Assembly: GCA_014686905.1 (NCBI GenBank)
Contig: GCA_014686905.1_4093.1
Origin: a phage
Reading direction: 5' to 3' (one strand)
Length of the DNA: 64,000 bases
The notes under the pieces are model-generated. The model was given only the letters and a program-made list of their open reading frames with translations, did not search any database and was not told the origin of the DNA. A program made the position numbers and the translations under genes. Numbering within the stretch: position 1 is the stretch's first letter; each line of letters starts with the position of its first letter. Shown here one piece after another: positions 3,431-17,098 of the stretch.

Positions 3431-5170
3431 ATGAGTTGGAAACGACATATGACAGTGGGAAGGTCTAAACTATCGACCATCCCAAATCAGTCCAGTAATA
3501 GCAATAAATCAACAGGAACGAAAACAAATTTCGCTTCCTATCTTCCTGTTGTATATAATGGATTGGCAAATCGTACTGAGCGTTATAGTCAGTATGAGCA
3601 AATGGACCAAGATCCTGAAATTAGAACTGCATTGAATATAATTGCTGACTTTTGTACTCAAAGTACTGAAGATTTTGGTTTACCATATAAAATCAAATAT
3701 AAAGATGATATTGGTGATACTGAAGTAACGACTATTGAAGATCGTTTAGATGCATGGACTGAACAAAATGATTTTAAAACACGAATGTATGAAATTGTGC
3801 GTGGTCTTCTGAAATATGGTGATCAATTTTTCATTCGAGATCCAGAAACATTCGATTGGTATTGGGTAAGTCCCAAAAATGTTGAGCAAGTATTTGTTAA
3901 CGAAGCCACTGGTAAAACACCAGTAATTTATTATATACGTGACGTATCATTAAATTTGAAAGATAAAGTTTTTAGTAACCTTCAAGTAGGATTTGATAAA
4001 ACCGCTTATCCAGGAGCTATTCCAACAACAATGGGTGGTGGTGGTTCAGTAGCTGCTGGTGGTGCATCTGGTTTTACAAGTCAAGGAAATACGGCTGACC
4101 CATTCAGTACTAACGGTCAATTAGACGTTATTCCTGTTGGTGCAGAACACGTAATTCATCTAACACTAAATACAGGACAAGATGGGGTATGGCCTTTTGG
4201 TACTAGTATACTTGAGGACGTATTTAAAGTCTATAAGCAAAAAGAACTTCTGGAAGATAGTATCATAATTTATCGTGTACAACGTGCACCTGAGCGTCGT
4301 GTATTTAAAATTGATGTTGGTGATATGCAAGCACACCAAGCGATGGCTTATGTTGAAAGATTTAAAAATGAAATCCACCAGCGTAGAATACCTTCAAACA
4401 AAGGTGGAAGTACTTCACTAATGGATGCAGCGTATAATCCATTAAGCATTTTAGAAGACTACTTTTTCCCACAAACTTCTGAAGGTCGTGGTTCAGATGT
4501 TCAAACATTACCAGGCGGTGATAACTTAGGACAAATTGATGACTTACGTTATTTCAATAATAAATTGATTCGTGGTCTTCAAATACCAGCTTCATATCTA
4601 CCACAAGGTCCAGATGATGGTGGTGTTTCATTATTTGGTGATGGTGCTACACAAGCTATGGCAAGTGAATTGCGATTCAATAATCAATGTATGCGTTATC
4701 AACGTTTAGTTGCAAAACATTTTGATGCTGAATTCAAAAGATTTATGGTTAAAAATGGATATAACATTAGTACTTCATCTTTTGAAGTTATTATGAATCC
4801 ACCTATTAACTTAGCTTCTTATCGTAAAGCTGAACTAGATGCTAAACTAATTAATACATATCTTCCTCTTAATGACTTGCCTTATATGGCAAAACAAACA
4901 ATTCTTGAAAAAATGGGCTTTTCTAAAGCTGATATTGTTAAGAATGAACAAATGTGGTTACAAGAGAATCCACAAGATGGTTCCCAACCTTCTGGTGGTG
5001 AAGAAGATTCCGCAGGATTGCAGTCTGTTGGCATTGATGCTCCAAATGATCCTGGAATGGATCTTGGTATTGATGGAGAAGGTAATTTGGAAAGTGCTGA
5101 TGCCGAATACCAAGAGCAACAGAGTGGAAGTGGTGGTTTCGACCCTAATAATTTAGGCAATTCTTTTTAA
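3431..5170 (+). CDS. 20: portal vertex protein (T4 gp20-like)
   Basis: Central region IIYRVQRAPERRV...TLPGGDN...DLRYF matches the T4 gp20 portal as recalled; RBS AAGGA; position ahead of prohead-core/protease/scaffold/MCP genes. Confidence 0.85.
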   Translation: MSWKRHMTVGRSKLSTIPNQSSNSNKSTGTKTNFASYLPVVYNGLANRTERYSQYEQMDQDPEIRTALNIIADFCTQSTEDFGLPYKIKYKDDIGDTEVTTIEDRLDAWTEQNDFKTRMYEIVRGLLKYGDQFFIRDPETFDWYWVSPKNVEQVFVNEATGKTPVIYYIRDVSLNLKDKVFSNLQVGFDKTAYPGAIPTTMGGGGSVAAGGASGFTSQGNTADPFSTNGQLDVIPVGAEHVIHLTLNTGQDGVWPFGTSILEDVFKVYKQKELLEDSIIIYRVQRAPERRVFKIDVGDMQAHQAMAYVERFKNEIHQRRIPSNKGGSTSLMDAAYNPLSILEDYFFPQTSEGRGSDVQTLPGGDNLGQIDDLRYFNNKLIRGLQIPASYLPQGPDDGGVSLFGDGATQAMASELRFNNQCMRYQRLVAKHFDAEFKRFMVKNGYNISTSSFEVIMNPPINLASYRKAELDAKLINTYLPLNDLPYMAKQTILEKMGFSKADIVKNEQMWLQENPQDGSQPSGGEEDSAGLQSVGIDAPNDPGMDLGIDGEGNLESADAEYQEQQSGSGGFDPNNLGNSF

Positions 5171-5192
5171 ACATAAATAACAATGTATAAGA

Positions 5193-5220
5193 ATGAGGGT
5201 TTATTTTTACCCTCATTTAT
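5193..5220 (+). terminator. hairpin ATGAGGGT-loop-ACCCTCAT after the portal gene
   Basis: Inverted repeat with a T-rich loop; weak T tail. Confidence 0.35.
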
Positions 5221-5243
5221 AATGCATATTTCAAGGAGATCAA

Positions 5244-5471
5244 ATGTTAAAGGACATCTTTGAATCTAGCAGTGATTCAATGTACGACCCTGAAGATGAT
5301 CAGAACGTATATAAAATTACTGATTCCAGAAAACCGAAACTAACATTACAAGTATTAAACAACTTAAGAAAGTACCGTGAATTTAAAGCACATGAAGAAC
5401 AACGCCGCAAAAATGTGGTTGCTGTTGTTTATGCCGCTGCACCAACAGGTGACGGTTCTGGGTTAATGTAA
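5244..5471 (+). CDS. small prohead core protein (gp67-like by position, 75 aa)
   Basis: RBS AAGGAG; position between portal and protease as in the T4 20-67-68-21-22-23 order; no sequence-level confirmation. Confidence 0.4.
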   Translation: MLKDIFESSSDSMYDPEDDQNVYKITDSRKPKLTLQVLNNLRKYREFKAHEEQRRKNVVAVVYAAAPTGDGSGLM

Positions 5472-5520
5472 ACCGAAAATCGCACTTTTTAAAGCTTTTA
5501 AAAAAGGCGATTTTATTCAG

Positions 5521-5539
5521 TACTAAATAATATCATACT
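5521..5539 (+). promoter_or_regulatory. conserved late-promoter/leader element copy A (TACTAAATAATATCATACT)
   Basis: Near-identical to the elements at 8285-8303 and 20975-20990 (minus strand); upstream of the acidic prohead-core gene. Confidence 0.5.
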
Positions 5540-5572
5540 TTATACGAATGTAATATATCTATGGAGGATATA

Positions 5573-6421
5573 ATGGCGAATTTAAAACTACTACAAGAAG
5601 CAATTGCGGCGTTTGCAAATGGCGAACAAGATATTGCTGATAAAAAAATGCGTAAGTATTTCGTTGAGCAAGCTCAAGAAATTAACAAACAACTAGAAGA
5701 AAGCATGGAAGATGAAGACGACGATGAAGATTGTGAAGTCGAAGTTAAAGTCAAAGATGAAGAAAAGCTTGACGAAGATTTTGATGTACAACCAGACGAA
5801 GGTCTAAATGCTGAAATCGAATACACCCTTGGTGAAGAAGATGAAAGTGCAGAAGAAGAAGTTGAATTCTCTGCTGATGCAGATGGTGACGGTGAAGACG
5901 ATGTTGACGTTGAAGTGAAAGCTGATGCTGATGTTCCTTCCGAAGACCAATGGGAATCAATCCAAGATGCTTTCCGTGGCCTACAACAAATGTTTGATGA
6001 AATCGGTGACGGTGAAGTTGATCTAGATTCTGAAGAAGAAGTAGAAGATAGCGAAGAAGAAGTTGGTGTTGACGGTGACGACGAATTTGCTGATGTTGAA
6101 TTCGGCGATGAAAAATTCGGTGAATCCTTCAAACTAGAAAAAGTTGCTCCAGTTGATAAGAAAGAAAAAGCTGGCACTCATTCCAAATCTCCAGTAGCAC
6201 CAGAAGCTAAATCTCCAGTAGCAGGAGCAGAGCCAGTTAAATTCGCTAAGAAAACTGACCAAGCCCCACTACTAGACCTAGATGATAAATCTGTTCTACC
6301 AAAAGATAGCCTAGATCTTGGTAAAAATGCTCGCGGTGAAATGAAAGATGTTAAAGCACCAAAAACTACTGCATCTAATTCTAAATCACCACTAAGCAAA
6401 GCACAACCTAAACTAAAATAA
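5573..6421 (+). CDS. highly acidic prohead core/scaffold-like protein (gp68-like by position); ORF could start at 5561
   Basis: GGAGG 5 nt before the ATG at 5573; long Asp/Glu-rich low-complexity region; synteny with T4 head genes. Confidence 0.5.
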   Translation: MANLKLLQEAIAAFANGEQDIADKKMRKYFVEQAQEINKQLEESMEDEDDDEDCEVEVKVKDEEKLDEDFDVQPDEGLNAEIEYTLGEEDESAEEEVEFSADADGDGEDDVDVEVKADADVPSEDQWESIQDAFRGLQQMFDEIGDGEVDLDSEEEVEDSEEEVGVDGDDEFADVEFGDEKFGESFKLEKVAPVDKKEKAGTHSKSPVAPEAKSPVAGAEPVKFAKKTDQAPLLDLDDKSVLPKDSLDLGKNARGEMKDVKAPKTTASNSKSPLSKAQPKLK

Positions 6422-6441
6422 ATATCTGAAAGGAGATCATT

Positions 6442-7065
6442 ATGAGTAGTATGATTCGTGAATGGTCTTCATTCAATGATTCTAAAGTTGTTTTGGAACA
6501 TCGTGATAATGGATTTGGTGGGCGTGACTGCTATCTTCGTGGTATTGCTATTCAAGCCGACCAACGAAATTTGAACGAGAGAATTTACCCTTTATCTGAA
6601 ATTACAAGGGCAGTAAATAACATGAACCAGCGTTTAGCTAAAGGTGAAAGCATTCTTGTTGAATGTGACCATCCAGAAACACTAACTATTAACCTAGACC
6701 GTGTAGCAGCAATGATTACTAAGGTTTGGATGGAAGGTGCTAATGGTATGGCAGAAATCAAACTACTTGATACTGCACATGGTCAGAATATCCGTAAAAT
6801 GCTAGAGGCTGGTGTAAAACTTGGTGTAAGTTCTCGCGGTTCCGGTAACGTTGATTATAATGGAATAGTTTCTGATTTTGAAATTATCACTATTGATATT
6901 GTTGCTCAACCTAGTGCTCCAGAAGCATACCCAACAGCGGTATTTGAATCTCTGATGAGTAAGTACGGATCACCTTGTAATAGTTCTAAAAAAATCACTG
7001 AATCTAAAAAAGTAAATAATTTAGATTCTGAAATATACGATTTTTTCAAGAAATTAAAAGGTTAA
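6442..7065 (+). CDS. 21: prohead protease (T4 gp21-like)
   Basis: Motifs NERIYPLSEITRAV and GVSSRGSGNV resemble T4 gp21 (NKRLYP..., GVSSRGLG); length 207 aa vs about 212 in T4; RBS AAAGGAG. Confidence 0.85.
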   Translation: MSSMIREWSSFNDSKVVLEHRDNGFGGRDCYLRGIAIQADQRNLNERIYPLSEITRAVNNMNQRLAKGESILVECDHPETLTINLDRVAAMITKVWMEGANGMAEIKLLDTAHGQNIRKMLEAGVKLGVSSRGSGNVDYNGIVSDFEIITIDIVAQPSAPEAYPTAVFESLMSKYGSPCNSSKKITESKKVNNLDSEIYDFFKKLKG

Positions 7066-9514: not shown

Positions 9515-9558
9515 TTGTAATCGATTTAAAAGATTTAATCAAGAAATTAAAAACAATA

Positions 9559-9588
9559 GGGACTCTTCGGAGTCCCTTTTCTTTTTTG
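9559..9588 (+). terminator. rho-independent terminator after the MCP gene
   Basis: GGGACTC-TTCG-GAGTCCC followed by TTTTCTTTTTT. Confidence 0.8.
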
Positions 9589-9590
9589 TG

Positions 9591-9619
9591 TTGACATGTC
9601 ACATTTTTTGTGTAATAAT
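9591..9619 (+). promoter_or_regulatory. sigma70-like promoter (TTGACA-N16/17-TAATAAT) for the inserted island
   Basis: TTGACA at 9591-9596 and a TA-rich -10 about 17 nt downstream. Confidence 0.45.
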
Positions 9620-9647
9620 ACGCGTACATTATAAATGAAGAAGAGAA

Positions 9648-10571
9648 ATGACAATGAATCCAAATGAAGAAAAATTTATTAATGCAGTGAATGAAAAGTA
9701 TGGTACTGGTGTGTATTTGTTTGATAAAATGGTATATATTAATGCTCATAAACAGGTTGAACTTTATTGTGTAGAAGGTTGTCATTATTTCAAAATCACT
9801 CCTATGCAAATAGTCCGACCTTCTGCAAAAGGATGTAACATTTGTCAAAAAAACACAGCATACACGACCGAAACGTTTATTGAAAAAGTTAAAACCATCC
9901 ATCCAACATTGTCATTTGAGAAAACTATCTACAAAAAACAAAGTGACAGTAATGGGCGAGTCATCGTTACATGTCATAATGATCCGAATGATGTGCATGA
10001 TTGGGAAGTATCAGCCGCAACATTATTAAAAGGAAAAACTAGTTGTGGAATATGTTCTGGTAAAGGTGGAAGAAGTACTGAACGTTTCATTGAACTTGTG
10101 TCGCCTATCCATAACCATAAGTATGATTATAGCTTGGTGGATTACAAGACTAGTGATGAACATGTGGATATTATTTGTCCTGAACATGGTGTCTTTAAAC
10201 AAATACCCAAATCTCATATGGCAGGAAGAGGATGTCCATCATGTGGTGAGTATGGTTATCAACCATCAAAACCTGGATATTTCTATGTTCAAAAACTAAC
10301 TAACAATGACAAGACGGTGTACAAGTATGGAATCACTGGTGATATGAAACGCCGTGTAAACGAACAAAGTCGCAATTCTGAGTTCGAGCATGAAGTACTT
10401 GTAGAACGCTACTTTGAAGATGGCAATCAACCATTACTGTTGGAAAAGTTCATAAAGAAATACATTGAAAGTGGTGTTGTAAGTACTGAAGAGTTACCGT
10501 CAGGATTTACTGAAACATTTGATGCTAAGTATCTTGAAAGTGTTTTAGAAATTGTAAATACTTTTAAGTAA
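9648..10571 (+). CDS. protein with three tandem zinc-ribbon repeats and a C-terminal T5orf172 (GIY-YIG-related) domain; homing-endonuclease-like
   Basis: Three roughly 65-aa repeats each ending C..HG.F....G.GC..C; C-terminus GYFYVQKL...VYKYGITGDMKRRVNEQ fits the T5orf172/MUG113 pattern. Confidence 0.6.
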   Translation: MTMNPNEEKFINAVNEKYGTGVYLFDKMVYINAHKQVELYCVEGCHYFKITPMQIVRPSAKGCNICQKNTAYTTETFIEKVKTIHPTLSFEKTIYKKQSDSNGRVIVTCHNDPNDVHDWEVSAATLLKGKTSCGICSGKGGRSTERFIELVSPIHNHKYDYSLVDYKTSDEHVDIICPEHGVFKQIPKSHMAGRGCPSCGEYGYQPSKPGYFYVQKLTNNDKTVYKYGITGDMKRRVNEQSRNSEFEHEVLVERYFEDGNQPLLLEKFIKKYIESGVVSTEELPSGFTETFDAKYLESVLEIVNTFK

Positions 10572-10594
10572 ACAATCTAAAGGAGTTGACACGG

Positions 10595-10945
10595 ATGTTA
10601 ACTGTATACAAATTTAACAAAGAAGAGTACTTAAAGAGTCAGTACTCAAATATAGAAATAAATGTTCCTTATGGTACGTTAGTTGGATATGATGAAGCCA
10701 CTGAAACATTGTATTATAATGATGATAGATTGGATTATAGTTTAGATTCTTTTATAGAAGATATACTAAACACACATACTGAAGATATGTTATATGAAGA
10801 ATACATAGATCATTATAGGGAACGTATGTCACAATTACACTCAGACGCTCCAGTACTAAACATTACACAAGAACCTTCTGAATTTCAGCCCCATAATCCT
10901 TTTCAACGTTTAATAGATATTGGTTTGAAATTCACTATTAGTTGA
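10595..10945 (+). CDS. hypothetical protein (116 aa; ORF opens at 10586 with TTG)
   Basis: AAGGAG 9 nt before the ATG at 10595. Confidence 0.45.
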   Translation: MLTVYKFNKEEYLKSQYSNIEINVPYGTLVGYDEATETLYYNDDRLDYSLDSFIEDILNTHTEDMLYEEYIDHYRERMSQLHSDAPVLNITQEPSEFQPHNPFQRLIDIGLKFTIS

Positions 10946-10984
10946 TAGATAAATATCTCCATATTAATGATGGAGATTGAATCT

Positions 10985-11293
10985 ATGTCACAGATATGTT
11001 ATGTTATAATAAATTCTGCATGGCCTGAGTATGTTAAAATTGGTTTTACTTCAAAATCAGAAATGACAGAACGTCTAAGAACGTATCAGACTGCTACACC
11101 ATTTCGTGACTTTGAAGTATATCATGAAGTTCATTTTGATGATGCACGTTTGGCTGAAAAAGAAATACATAAAAGGCTTAAGCAGATGAATGCAACTAGA
11201 CAACCCAATACCGAGTGGTTTAAAATGTCTAAAAAGATAGCAGCCAACATTATTGATTCCGTATGGGATGATATGGATAACGACTTGCTATAG
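10985..11293 (+). CDS. stand-alone T5orf172 (GIY-YIG-like) domain protein; ORF may start at 10967
   Basis: CYVIINSAWPEYVKIGFTSKSEMTERLRTY...EWF fits the T5orf172/MUG113 pattern; second copy of this domain within 1 kb. Confidence 0.55.
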   Translation: MSQICYVIINSAWPEYVKIGFTSKSEMTERLRTYQTATPFRDFEVYHEVHFDDARLAEKEIHKRLKQMNATRQPNTEWFKMSKKIAANIIDSVWDDMDNDLL

Positions 11294-11333
11294 GAATAAA
11301 TATAGTATATATTAATCATAAAGGGATTTATAC

Positions 11334-12944
11334 ATGAGCATAAGTTTTAATAACCCATTGGATACAATGACCAGTACTGGTGCTAATGGATCTTTAGAAC
11401 TAATAGTGCTTGGTGGTACACCAACTAACCCAAGACCTATTCGTTTTAACTCGTCATCAGTTATCATACCAGTACAAACTTTACCAACTGGTGAACAAGG
11501 TGCAATGGTCTTTGATAGAAACGAGTTAGTTTTGAAGTATCATAACGGTACTAGTTGGATTGCAGTATACGATACTGATACCATTTTAGAACCAATTAGA
11601 ATTTCACTTGATGAAGTAAATAGAAAACTAAATTTAAAAGTAGAAAGTGTAACTTATAGTAGTAGTACTGTTCCTAGTGCAAGTATTAGTGGAACAAACT
11701 TAAACATTGTATTCCCTACTGCTTCTAGTGGTGGTTCTGGTCCAACTGGTCTTTACACTTCACTTAAACCTGGTGCTATTACACAATATTCATTGACTTC
11801 TGGTCAATCTGTTGCTAGTATACGTGAACAAATGTCAGGACAATCGAATGGACAAAGTGGGAGAAACGGTTCACAAGGTGCTCCGTGGAAAACGTCTGAC
11901 GGTTGGTGTTTTGCTGATGGTATGTGGTGGCAATGGGAGGGGGAAAATGGTACAATTACCAAACAAGTACCAAACCTTAACCAAAACGCGTACTTAAAAG
12001 GGATATCCACATCAGGTGTAACTAAAACTGATAGTGTTATTGGTAGTAGCGGTAATATTAGCGGCACAGTATTAAGTGTTGCCCAATTACCATCACACTC
12101 ATTTAGTTTTAGTGGGACCACAGGGGCTGCTGGTCGTCATGGTCATAGTCAAGCACTAAAAGGTATGGACCGTAGTGGTCTAAATGCGTTAACTTCAAGT
12201 AATGATAACGGTATACCAACTGTAATCAATAACATTAACGAAGCACCAGACCACATTCACTCATTTAGTGGAAACACTAACACACTTGGTGGAAACCAAC
12301 CACACTATCATGGTATTAGTAACATTGATGTGGAACACTTTAACGTTGCATATCTATATAACATTGCTGAATCTAACGTCGCATTGAGTGAAAAAGTTGC
12401 AAACACTCGTTATGTACTAAAAACTGGTGATACAATGACTGGTTCATTGACTATTGCAAACAGTGCGTCAATTAAGTCAAATGATACATCATTAGTTCTA
12501 TATTTCCGTAACGCAAGCGGTGGTGAGCGTGCGGCAGTGTATCATAACTCTTCAAATAATACATTGAGATTACGTTCCGGTGGAGCAGAAGTTACTGTAA
12601 ACTCTTCTGGTACGTTAGCTGCTCCATCATTAACTGTTTCTAACAACTCAGCTACTGTTGGTGGTAAAAATATTGTTCGTTCAATTAACGGTACTGCTGC
12701 TGATGCTAGTGGCAACGTTACTTTGCAAATTAGTACTAATAACGTACAAAGTATTCGTTTGAGTGCACGTATTGAAACAAGTAAAATACCTGATTCTTCA
12801 TGGACATATACACCAGAAGGTGCATTTATGGATGGCGTATGGATTTCTGTTAATGGTAGTTCAGGCACTCACTTAGAACGAATTAGTTATCGCTATGTTC
12901 AAATGCAAATAAATGGTAACTGGGAAACAGTACGTCAACAATAA
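11334..12944 (+). CDS. tail fibre protein with collar-like domain and HxH motifs
   Basis: Ser/Thr/Gly/Asn-rich; LPSHSFSF collar-like motif; HGHS, HIHS and HYHG as in T4 fibre tips; followed by an assembly-chaperone-like gene. Confidence 0.75.
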   Translation: MSISFNNPLDTMTSTGANGSLELIVLGGTPTNPRPIRFNSSSVIIPVQTLPTGEQGAMVFDRNELVLKYHNGTSWIAVYDTDTILEPIRISLDEVNRKLNLKVESVTYSSSTVPSASISGTNLNIVFPTASSGGSGPTGLYTSLKPGAITQYSLTSGQSVASIREQMSGQSNGQSGRNGSQGAPWKTSDGWCFADGMWWQWEGENGTITKQVPNLNQNAYLKGISTSGVTKTDSVIGSSGNISGTVLSVAQLPSHSFSFSGTTGAAGRHGHSQALKGMDRSGLNALTSSNDNGIPTVINNINEAPDHIHSFSGNTNTLGGNQPHYHGISNIDVEHFNVAYLYNIAESNVALSEKVANTRYVLKTGDTMTGSLTIANSASIKSNDTSLVLYFRNASGGERAAVYHNSSNNTLRLRSGGAEVTVNSSGTLAAPSLTVSNNSATVGGKNIVRSINGTAADASGNVTLQISTNNVQSIRLSARIETSKIPDSSWTYTPEGAFMDGVWISVNGSSGTHLERISYRYVQMQINGNWETVRQQ

Positions 12945-12954
12945 GGAATGTGTA

Positions 12955-13470
12955 ATGCAACTAACAAATTTTAAGATGTATGAAAAAGAAGGTGGTAATC
13001 CTAATTCTTTGTATATGATGTCCGATGAAGGTATGGATTGGTATGAATCTCGTGAATTGTTTGACATTAATAAAGCAAAATTTATGTATGATACTAATGG
13101 TTTAATTGTTTCAGCATCATATAACATTTATGATCTAGTACCTTTAGGTTTTAGTGTTTCTGAAATTGAATATGATGGTGATATTAACAAACTTTATGGT
13201 ATGGTTTACGATGGAAATACTATTCATGACTATATTGAAACTAAAGAAGAAAAAATTGAACGCCTAAAAAATGAATTATCTAATTTGAAATACATTGCAA
13301 TTCAAGAACTTGGACACTTAAAAACTGCTATGGATCTTGAGTTAGCAACTGATGAAGAAGCTGTATTGTTTGTAAAATTGAAAGATTATGTAACGCAATT
13401 GAATTCAATCAAACCAGCAGACATGATCAAGAAAACATTTTCATTTCCAGTTAAACCGGAAAAAAAATGA
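12955..13470 (+). CDS. tail fibre assembly/chaperone-like protein (ORF opens at 12913)
   Basis: AAGGAA before the ATG at 12955; size and position right after the fibre gene; weak motif support only. Confidence 0.5.
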   Translation: MQLTNFKMYEKEGGNPNSLYMMSDEGMDWYESRELFDINKAKFMYDTNGLIVSASYNIYDLVPLGFSVSEIEYDGDINKLYGMVYDGNTIHDYIETKEEKIERLKNELSNLKYIAIQELGHLKTAMDLELATDEEAVLFVKLKDYVTQLNSIKPADMIKKTFSFPVKPEKK

Positions 13471-13500
13471 GACAACACGTAAAGACGTGATACAATTAAG

Positions 13501-13536
13501 TCATCTCACCGATTGTGGTGAGGTGACATTTTTTTG
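13501..13536 (+). terminator. rho-independent terminator after the tail-fibre module
   Basis: TCATCTCACC-loop-GGTGAGGTGA followed by T7. Confidence 0.7.
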
Positions 13537-13560
13537 AAAACACACATGGAGAAATACAAA

Positions 13561-13863
13561 ATGGCTAAATCTAAAAAAGAAGTTAAAGTTGAAATTCGTG
13601 ATCTAAACGATGAACAACGTAAACGTCTCGGCGATGCACTTAACAACATTGTTGTACAACTAACTTTCATTGATGATACCAAAGCATCCTTATCTGATTT
13701 TGTTTCTAGTGTTTCTGATGAACTTGGTATCGATGCATCTGATATCAAACAAGCTGCACAACGTATGTACAAAGGTGATTACTTTGACAAACAAAATAAA
13801 CTCGATAATATCGAAACTATTCTTAGTGTTACTAATAATCTTCCACAAGCAGATGATTACTAA
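13561..13863 (+). CDS. hypothetical basic protein (100 aa; ORF opens at 13534)
   Basis: GGAGA before the ATG at 13561. Confidence 0.45.
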   Translation: MAKSKKEVKVEIRDLNDEQRKRLGDALNNIVVQLTFIDDTKASLSDFVSSVSDELGIDASDIKQAAQRMYKGDYFDKQNKLDNIETILSVTNNLPQADDY

Positions 13864-13885: not shown

Positions 13886-13913
13886 AGCCTCCAATGACGG
13901 AGGCTTTCTTTTT
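13886..13913 (+). terminator. rho-independent terminator upstream of the DNA polymerase gene
   Basis: AGCCTCC-AATGAC-GGAGGCT followed by TTCTTTTT. Confidence 0.7.
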
Positions 13914-16948: not shown

Positions 16949-17098
16949 GGAGTAATAATATGGTTATTGTAAATGAAATTGAACTAAACTATGACGAAGT
17001 AAACGATACTTTCACTAATGAGATGTTGAATCTTACTGAAGAAAGTGTAAATGAGGCATGGGAAAAATATGTAGAATGGACTTCATTACAAGGTAAAA

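Follow-up and report, generated by a model that had tools for sequence, protein, structure and literature searches.

Which kind of tail fibre does a jumbo coliphage encode close to its capsid genes, and does this fibre decide which hosts the phage can infect? The question is raised by positions 11,334 to 13,470 of a 64,000-nucleotide stretch of phage DNA (GenBank assembly GCA_014686905.1, contig GCA_014686905.1_4093.1), hereafter the window, where a gene for a tail-fibre protein is followed by a gene for a tail fibre assembly (Tfa) chaperone. An earlier note on this DNA, made from its letters alone, had taken the fibre for the main host-range determinant in the window. Our preferred reading, to which we give a probability of about 0.7, is that the two genes specify a homotrimeric baseplate fibre, the counterpart of gp098 of Klebsiella phage RaK2, and a separate Tfa chaperone that would fold its exchangeable tip. 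The gene pair is already annotated in published phages, an orthologue of the fibre has already been characterised, and the interpretation as fibre plus chaperone is right.

The fibre gene and the chaperone gene

Judged by its sequence, the window is from one of the published Asteriusvirus jumbo coliphages. Asteriusvirus comprises jumbo myoviruses with genomes of approximately 350–370 kb. The best match to the first 25 kb of the window was slurp01, with 99.8% identity. The 2137 bases covering the fibre and chaperone genes were 100% identical in Escherichia phages G17 (MK327931.1), CRJP21 and Sharanji (OR545507.1), and 98–99% identical in 121Q, phAPEC6, PBECO4 and others. The fibre protein itself was 100% identical in 121Q, G17, slurp01, Sharanji, PBECO4, phAPEC6 and CRJP21, and at least 99% identical in 22 phage records. 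In the annotation of 121Q, the pair appears as gp607, 'tail fiber protein', and gp608, 'tail fiber assembly protein'.

The entire fibre, residues 1–536, was matched by PHROG 13229, 'tail fiber protein' (1e-273, profile positions 1–544). The fibre matched nothing in Pfam or NCBIfam, and searches of the Protein Data Bank (PDB) sequences with phmmer and with a full-length family profile gave chance matches only. With the model of the full-length monomer, Foldseek found nothing in the PDB at E ≤ 1e-3; its top match was the tail fibre of Pa223 (9nxk; E 0.023). All of the weak matches from structure searches were of fibre or spike type. Because the profile and structure searches indicated no non-fibre family, an assignment that would contradict it, the reading of the earlier note as a tail-fibre-type receptor-binding protein followed by a chaperone stands.

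The second gene, called chaperone-like before, could be placed in the Tfa type. It matched Pfam Caudo_TAP (PF02413; E 1.7e-9, 38.3 bits where the curated cut-off is 22.1), PHROG 136 (1.6e-37) and gpU of phage Mu (PDB 5yvq_B; 1.9e-8, covering residues 15–147 of 171). It most likely starts at the ATG at 12955, not at the ATG at 12913, judging from an AAGGA 8 nt upstream, from the annotated start in 121Q and from the PHROG match, which begins there. With this start, therefore, the two genes do not overlap and are separated by 10 nt.

Two antisense open reading frames (ORFs) on the minus strand, at 11804–12121 and 12542–12868, were not counted as genes: the coding frame on the other strand is strongly supported, and nothing speaks for these two frames themselves.

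The record of phAPEC6 (MK817115.1) omits the 536-aa fibre ORF, at 5001–6611, despite 99.1% DNA identity, and lists just a 49-aa ORF (gp221c) inside it. The published mass-spectrometry study of the virions could therefore not have found the fibre.

A histidine-rich block with a probable remote relation to collar and tip domains

The three HxH motifs and the LPSHSFSF block reported from the first inspection are present in the fibre protein (Table 1). Eight of its 11 histidines lie within residues 255–335, and three or more HxH motifs arose with P = 7e-4 in 100,000 composition-preserving shuffles. The block is built from a repeated unit, P-x-H-x-(H/F)-S-F-S-G-x-T...G...H-x-H, and its copies at residues 247–284 and 299–337 gave an internal repeat with z = 6.1, a value reached by none of 2000 shuffles. 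Because these two stretches are copies of each other, LPSHSFSF is the first half-site of the unit with its second histidine changed to phenylalanine; in 43 of 121 homologues, the residue at this position (257) is histidine.

Conservation differed between the sites. H324 and H326 were invariant (121/121), so that the third HxH is universal, while the other two were found in 78 of the 121 sequences and a fourth in 43. We distinguish variant A, the type of the window with three HxH motifs (78/121), from variant B, with PxHYHG and one HxH, as in RaK2 and GAP32 (42/121).

The likeness to a collar could be detected only at a distance. The Pfam Collar model (PF07484) did not match the protein, the fragment of residues 175–345 (E up to 10) or 33 homologues (E up to 1). 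A profile search of 1.84 billion proteins, however, yielded four unrelated proteins that matched only positions ~231–329, all with sub-threshold Gp10_C matches over this stretch. In one of the four, P0259, Pfam Collar matched residues 409–451 (24.6 bits, cut-off 24), just before the matching stretch. The family-only profile of residues 178–348 aligned with residues 422–551 of P0259 at 98% probability by hhalign (E 1.8e-13, 130 columns). This alignment begins inside Collar, pairing GWCFADG with GWALCDG, and continues across LPxHxH...HxH...HxH. Thus the term collar-like is borne out by the alignment with a Collar-containing protein, though not by the Collar model itself.

A possible similarity to the tip of the T4 long fibre was found in the same region. 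The family-only profile aligned with residues 913–978 of T4 gp37 at 86% hhalign probability (E 5e-6, 66 columns) with the histidine pairs in register, and the value rose to 94% with outgroups added. Against the PDB, the outgroup-enlarged profile matched the tail fibre 9qgo_A (1.2e-3), the T4 gp37 tip 2xgf (2.7e-3) and the Pa223 fibre 9nxk (0.015); 2xgf was matched by this enlarged profile only. HxH1 and HxH2 were invariant in the outgroup alignment. The comparison with T4 fibre tips that had been drawn from the motifs is supported as a remote relationship of the motifs but not as to their place, which is the conserved central part of the protein and not its tip.

Could the motifs have arisen by chance in a fibre rich in glycine, serine, threonine and histidine, with no relation to metal or to a collar? 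The failure of the Collar model, the dissimilarity of T4 gp12 and the existence of 42 homologues (of 121) that lack two of the HxH motifs would agree with this. The shuffling result, the invariance of H324 and H326, the internal repeat, the invariant HxH1 and HxH2 of the outgroups, and the alignments with the Collar-containing protein and with the HxH region of gp37 (86–94%, histidines in register) speak against it, and we consider such an origin extremely improbable. Our reading of these alignments is that residues 188–345 would form a remote, internal version of a collar plus HxH head domain. The HxH pairs may bind metal.

A metagenomic protein of 1039 aa, P0206, has three such domains (collar-like followed by LPxHxH...HxH...HENRPPY) in tandem, with conserved spacers between them. 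This architecture is unusual, since such a domain normally ends a fibre.

Domain organisation and the exchangeable tip

We profiled conservation as the identity of 120 homologues to the protein of the window. Identity was high over residues 1–240, lower over 241–320, high again over 321–460 and lowest over 461–536 (0.15–0.34). The AlphaFold model of the full-length monomer was moderate (predicted local distance difference test, pLDDT, 74 overall) and good at residues 140–235 and 380–430. The structure prediction of the C-terminal part, one of two checks proposed in the earlier note, gave a better model (residues 340–536, pLDDT 83.8), with fibre tips as its best matches.

The N-terminal region contains a fibre-type hairpin motif around residues 46–77 and a predicted helix at residues 81–99. 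The hairpin motif was also found in unrelated fibre proteins (profile positions 35–90), and two homologues had weak Mtd_N matches in this region. Residues 1–100 are probably the part that attaches to the baseplate. The shaft motif is widespread: most outgroup matches in the search of 1.84 billion proteins fell at positions 345–400, often repeatedly within one giant fibre.

The second check, for mosaicism among the fibre genes of related phages, showed that the tip and the chaperone are exchanged as a cassette in comparison with WPEC3 and WPEC5, two related jumbo phages of E. coli. Between the window and WPEC3, DNA identity was 82–88% in the flanks and in the first 1300 nt of the fibre gene, fell to 55–64% from ~12700 to 13480 and then returned to 83%. 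With WPEC5, identity collapsed just past the junction motif, and WPEC5 has instead a Gp53-like_C tip without a chaperone gene. The alignment with RaK2 gp098 also stopped at the junction motif, GGKNIVRSINGTAADASGNVTL.

Three kinds of tip were found among the relatives. The first, that of the window, lacks any Pfam domain and has G-x-W-x-x-V at its end. The second is Gp53-like_C (PF21882), in RaK2 and WPEC5. The third is Peptidase_S74, an intramolecular chaperone, in Serratia phage BF and in Erwinia and Yersinia phages. Each of the three occurs with both variants of the central block, and the tips have therefore been exchanged repeatedly. The Tfa gene accompanies the same type of tip in WPEC3 and GAP32 and is absent with the Gp53-like_C tip (WPEC5, RaK2), and the chaperone and the fibre tip diverge together. 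The tip beyond residues 443–464 and the chaperone gene behave as one recombination cassette of the standard type. This variable tip would be the part that binds a receptor.

We did not adopt an origin of the cassette through homing endonucleases, suggested by the T5orf172-type genes upstream, because neither boundary of the cassette adjoins these genes: one falls within the fibre gene and the other past the chaperone gene.

In Serratia phage BF, a 188-aa ORF without a Pfam match (4177–4743) directly follows the S74-type fibre, at the position of Tfa.

Host range

The identical fibre is carried by phages isolated on E. coli K-12, O157:H7, O103, avian pathogenic E. coli (APEC) and ATCC 25922, and on Salmonella Typhimurium. 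Phage G17 does not infect E. coli BW25113 (supplement of 10.64898/2026.04.02.716166). The fibre and chaperone of Sharanji are 100% identical to those of G17, yet Sharanji was isolated on K-12 MG1655. From the fibre shared across these hosts and from the difference between G17 and Sharanji on K-12, it is therefore unlikely that this fibre is what mainly sets the host range of the phage, as had been proposed for the window. Host defence systems could be an alternative cause of the difference between G17 and Sharanji. In the literature on Asteriusvirus receptors, G17 included, we found no assignment; for SHEFM2K alone, flagella are mentioned, at second hand, as a possible receptor.

The description of the gene as a single fibre gene holds for the window but not for the phage. 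It is the only fibre gene of the window because the remainder codes for replication and nucleotide-metabolism functions. Further fibre proteins of phAPEC6, Gp248, Gp256 (180 kDa) and Gp314, are encoded elsewhere in its genome (PMC7247149).

Proposed place and role of the fibre in the virion

The fibre gene lies between the major capsid and DNA polymerase genes in the window, in 121Q and in RaK2, GAP32, Serratia phage BF, WPEC3 and WPEC5. In the last five, the order is major capsid gene, fibre gene, in some a Tfa gene, a 98-aa gene and the DNA polymerase gene. The RaK2 orthologue, gp098, is present in virions, and serum against its C-terminal fragment, gp098C, lowered plating efficiency and labelled the baseplate, mainly on particles with contracted tails (PMC10253068). 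Its authors concluded that gp098 is a secondary receptor binder at the baseplate, outside the long branched fibres (PMC10253068). They were unable to model the full length of gp098, and they obtained structural matches only for residues 370–585 (PMC10253068).

The fibre of the window is probably the Asteriusvirus counterpart of gp098 and would act after the primary, long or branched, fibres. Attached to the baseplate through its conserved residues 1–100, it would bind a secondary receptor, leading to irreversible adsorption. In residues 188–345, a collar-like subdomain would be joined to an HxH head whose histidine pairs, on the axis of the trimer, probably hold metal as in gp37 and gp12. A beta-shaft (residues 346–442), the junction (443–464) and a receptor-binding tip (465–536) would follow. 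Within Tfa, a variable N-terminal domain would grip the tip and a conserved, helical C-terminal domain would drive trimerisation. The chaperone is probably not retained in the virion; no Tfa was detected in the virions of phAPEC6 (PMC7247149). Relatives have a self-sufficient Gp53-like_C tip or an autocleaving Peptidase_S74 tip at this place and then lack the Tfa gene.

An alternative is that the protein is a primary, long or side tail fibre, or the distal half of one, and the main determinant of host range. A mosaic, fast-evolving tip inherited together with Tfa, as in the side fibres of P2, Mu and lambda, is what such a fibre would have, and the GenBank name 'tail fiber protein' and the annotation of one homologue as 'Long tail fiber protein p37' go with it. 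However, gp098 is outside the long fibres of RaK2, and the antibody reached it mainly after contraction. The N-terminal 460 residues are ~50% conserved across phage genera of different hosts. The same protein occurs in phages from K-12, O157, O103, APEC and Salmonella, with G17 and Sharanji differing on K-12, and other, larger fibre proteins are encoded elsewhere in the genome. For these reasons we regard a long fibre as unlikely.

The protein might also be a central baseplate fibre or spike tip on the tail axis, with one trimer per virion, and not one of six peripheral fibres. Spike proteins were indeed among the structural matches, but these matches were weak and no better than those to fibres, and the C-terminal model matched fibre tips best. 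A Tfa chaperone and an exchangeable tip are features of fibres, and a separate hub gene is present at 248–1084. A place on the axis thus seems very unlikely to us.

Several points weigh against a baseplate fibre of the gp098 type as well. Tfa chaperones classically accompany long side fibres (P2, Mu, lambda). The proposed location at the baseplate and the proposed role with a secondary receptor are carried over from an orthologue with 49% identity and a different tip. No similarity to the window protein was detected for T4 gp12, by hhalign or by Smith–Waterman comparison against shuffles, or for T4 gp10 and gp11 by direct comparison. The trimer and its metal sites are predictions, the structural models being of the monomer, in which the His block reached a pLDDT of 46–77 and fell partly below 50. 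Finally, the gp098C fragment of RaK2 did not block adsorption (PMC10253068).

Gene order around the fibre gene

The positions of the features are given in Table 1. Upstream of the fibre gene, the window has, besides the baseplate hub gene, portal, protease, scaffold and capsid genes; downstream, it has replication and nucleotide-metabolism genes. The fibre gene had been placed directly after the capsid module, which is approximate, as three small genes intervene after the major capsid gene. The first of them encodes 307 aa with a treble-clef zinc finger and a T5orf172 domain (PHROG 681, 'endonuclease'), the second 119 aa without an assigned function, and the third 108 aa that are T5orf172/GIY-YIG-like. 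The endonuclease gene has 365 aa in 121Q and phAPEC6, the interval between the capsid and fibre genes is largely missing from GAP32, and identity to WPEC3 was just 48–62% over 9584–10034. From this variability among relatives, the interval is suggested to hold homing-endonuclease-like mobile genes.

Table 1. Features of the fibre locus and its surroundings in the window
Feature	Nucleotides	Strand	Residues	Remarks
G+C-rich hairpin	9558–9577			After the capsid gene; scores as a terminator on both strands
Three small genes	9648–11293			In the capsid–fibre interval; endonuclease-like, without assigned function and T5orf172-type, respectively
Fibre gene	11334..12944	+	1–536	536-aa ORF; identical to 121Q gp607, orthologous to RaK2 gp098
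Conserved N-terminal region	11334..11633	+	1–100	Mean identity 0.48–0.69 over 120 homologues
Collar-like subdomain	11895..12038	+	188–235	GWCFADG...VPNLNQNAYLKG; model pLDDT 83–95; hhalign to P0259
His-rich block	12072..12344	+	247–337	Two copies of a ~38-aa unit
LPSHSFSF	12087–12110		252–259	
HxH site, HGH	12138–12146		269–271	
HxH site, HIH	12252–12260		307–309	
HxH site, HYH	12303–12311		324–326	
Conserved shaft	12369..12659	+	346–442	Widespread fibre motif RYVLKTGDTMTGSL; identity 0.63–0.79, pLDDT ~90
Junction motif	12660..12725	+	443–464	GGKNIVRSINGTAADASGNVTL; left boundary of the exchangeable cassette
Variable tip	12726..12941	+	465–536	
Chaperone gene	12955..13470	+		Tfa-type tail fibre assembly chaperone, 171 aa; annotated in 121Q as gp608
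Terminator-like hairpin	13500..13527	+		After the chaperone gene; 12-bp stem with 6 G-C pairs and a T run; consensus match only
Small conserved gene	13534–13863			Between the chaperone and DNA polymerase genes; PHROG 12534, unknown function
G+C-rich hairpin	13886–13905			Before the DNA polymerase gene; scores as a terminator on both strands

The hairpin after the chaperone gene, a strong one, would close the transcription unit of the fibre and the chaperone. The small conserved gene behind it shares 73% identity with RaK2 gp099, and a PHROG named 'transcriptional regulator' matched it weakly (2e-7). A scan of 11200–13600 for DNA repeats found nothing beyond short chance matches, and no tRNA genes were found within the window. 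By the annotation of Sharanji, positions 17000–64000 encode GroES, translation initiation factor IF-3, a ClpS-like adaptor and gyrase A and B, and, as further cell-like genes, RNR alpha and beta, DHFR, RNase H, a RecD-like protein and RecA.

Implications

The analysis corrects the annotation of this locus in three respects: the start of the chaperone gene, the domain map of the fibre, and the gene missed in the phAPEC6 record. It also advises caution, in that this gene should not be treated as the host-range determinant of Asteriusviruses. For engineering, it offers a concrete cassette boundary, running from the junction motif up to and including the chaperone gene. A structural explanation for the part of gp098 that its authors were unable to model would come from the remote collar and HxH assignment. 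The practical value is small, and the current understanding of phage adsorption is unchanged.

Comparison with known systems

The closest phages, 121Q, G17, slurp01, Sharanji and PBECO4, have the same gene order and a two-gene DNA that is 98–100% identical, with no substantive difference from the window. RaK2 (Klebsiella, Alcyoneusvirus) has gp098 at the same syntenic place, with 49% identity over residues 1–464, and the same downstream 98-aa gene, 73% identical. Unlike the fibre of the window, gp098 combines a Gp53-like_C tip with a variant B block, no Tfa gene follows it, and the host is an encapsulated Klebsiella.

Tfa proteins act through a modular mechanism (PMC9608196). In comparison with the Tfa systems of phage Mu (gpS/gpU, PDB 5YVQ and 8JU3), P2 and lambda, the fibre of the window shows no detectable sequence similarity to gpS and is probably bound to the baseplate, and an invertible segment is absent.

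The tip of T4 gp37 (2XGF) appears to share with the fibre of the window the repeating unit H-x-H-x-x-S-G-x-T...G-x-H-x-H, and its HxH repeats are putative iron sites (PDB 2XGF, PMC6563267). The fibre of the window has three HxH motifs (ancestrally four) in the middle of the protein, whereas gp37 has eight at its tip; the chaperones are Tfa in the window and gp38/gp57A in T4.

In Seunavirus 4MG, an rV5-like phage of the Vequintavirinae, gp044 has a tip 37% identical to residues 421–536, including the junction motif, and it is followed by a 171-aa Tfa, gp043, with 23% identity to the chaperone of the window. In contrast to the fibre of the window, gp044 has only 370 aa and lacks the N-terminal 420 residues with the collar and HxH parts, and the phage is not a jumbo phage.

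Residues 188–345 align with a domain of the collar plus LPxHxH type, the type known from T4 gp12, MdpB-like proteins, the PVC fibre 9qgo and Pa223 (9nxk), although gp12 itself was not significantly similar. In the window, the first histidine pair of this domain has decayed to H-S-F, and 190 residues follow it, whereas the known domains end the chain. By analogy with gp12, a collar plus HxH domain fits the role of a short fibre at the baseplate. One may speculate further, as a tentative idea that is rather doubtful at present, that gp098 and gp607 are the jumbo-phage equivalent of gp12, whose collar plus HxH metal-binding head, a receptor-binding C-terminus in the usual case, would now be an internal knot onto which tips with three ways of folding (a separate Tfa, a self-sufficient Gp53-like_C or an autocleaving S74 chaperone) would have been grafted repeatedly, with secondary-receptor specificity traded as a cassette even with rV5-like phages.

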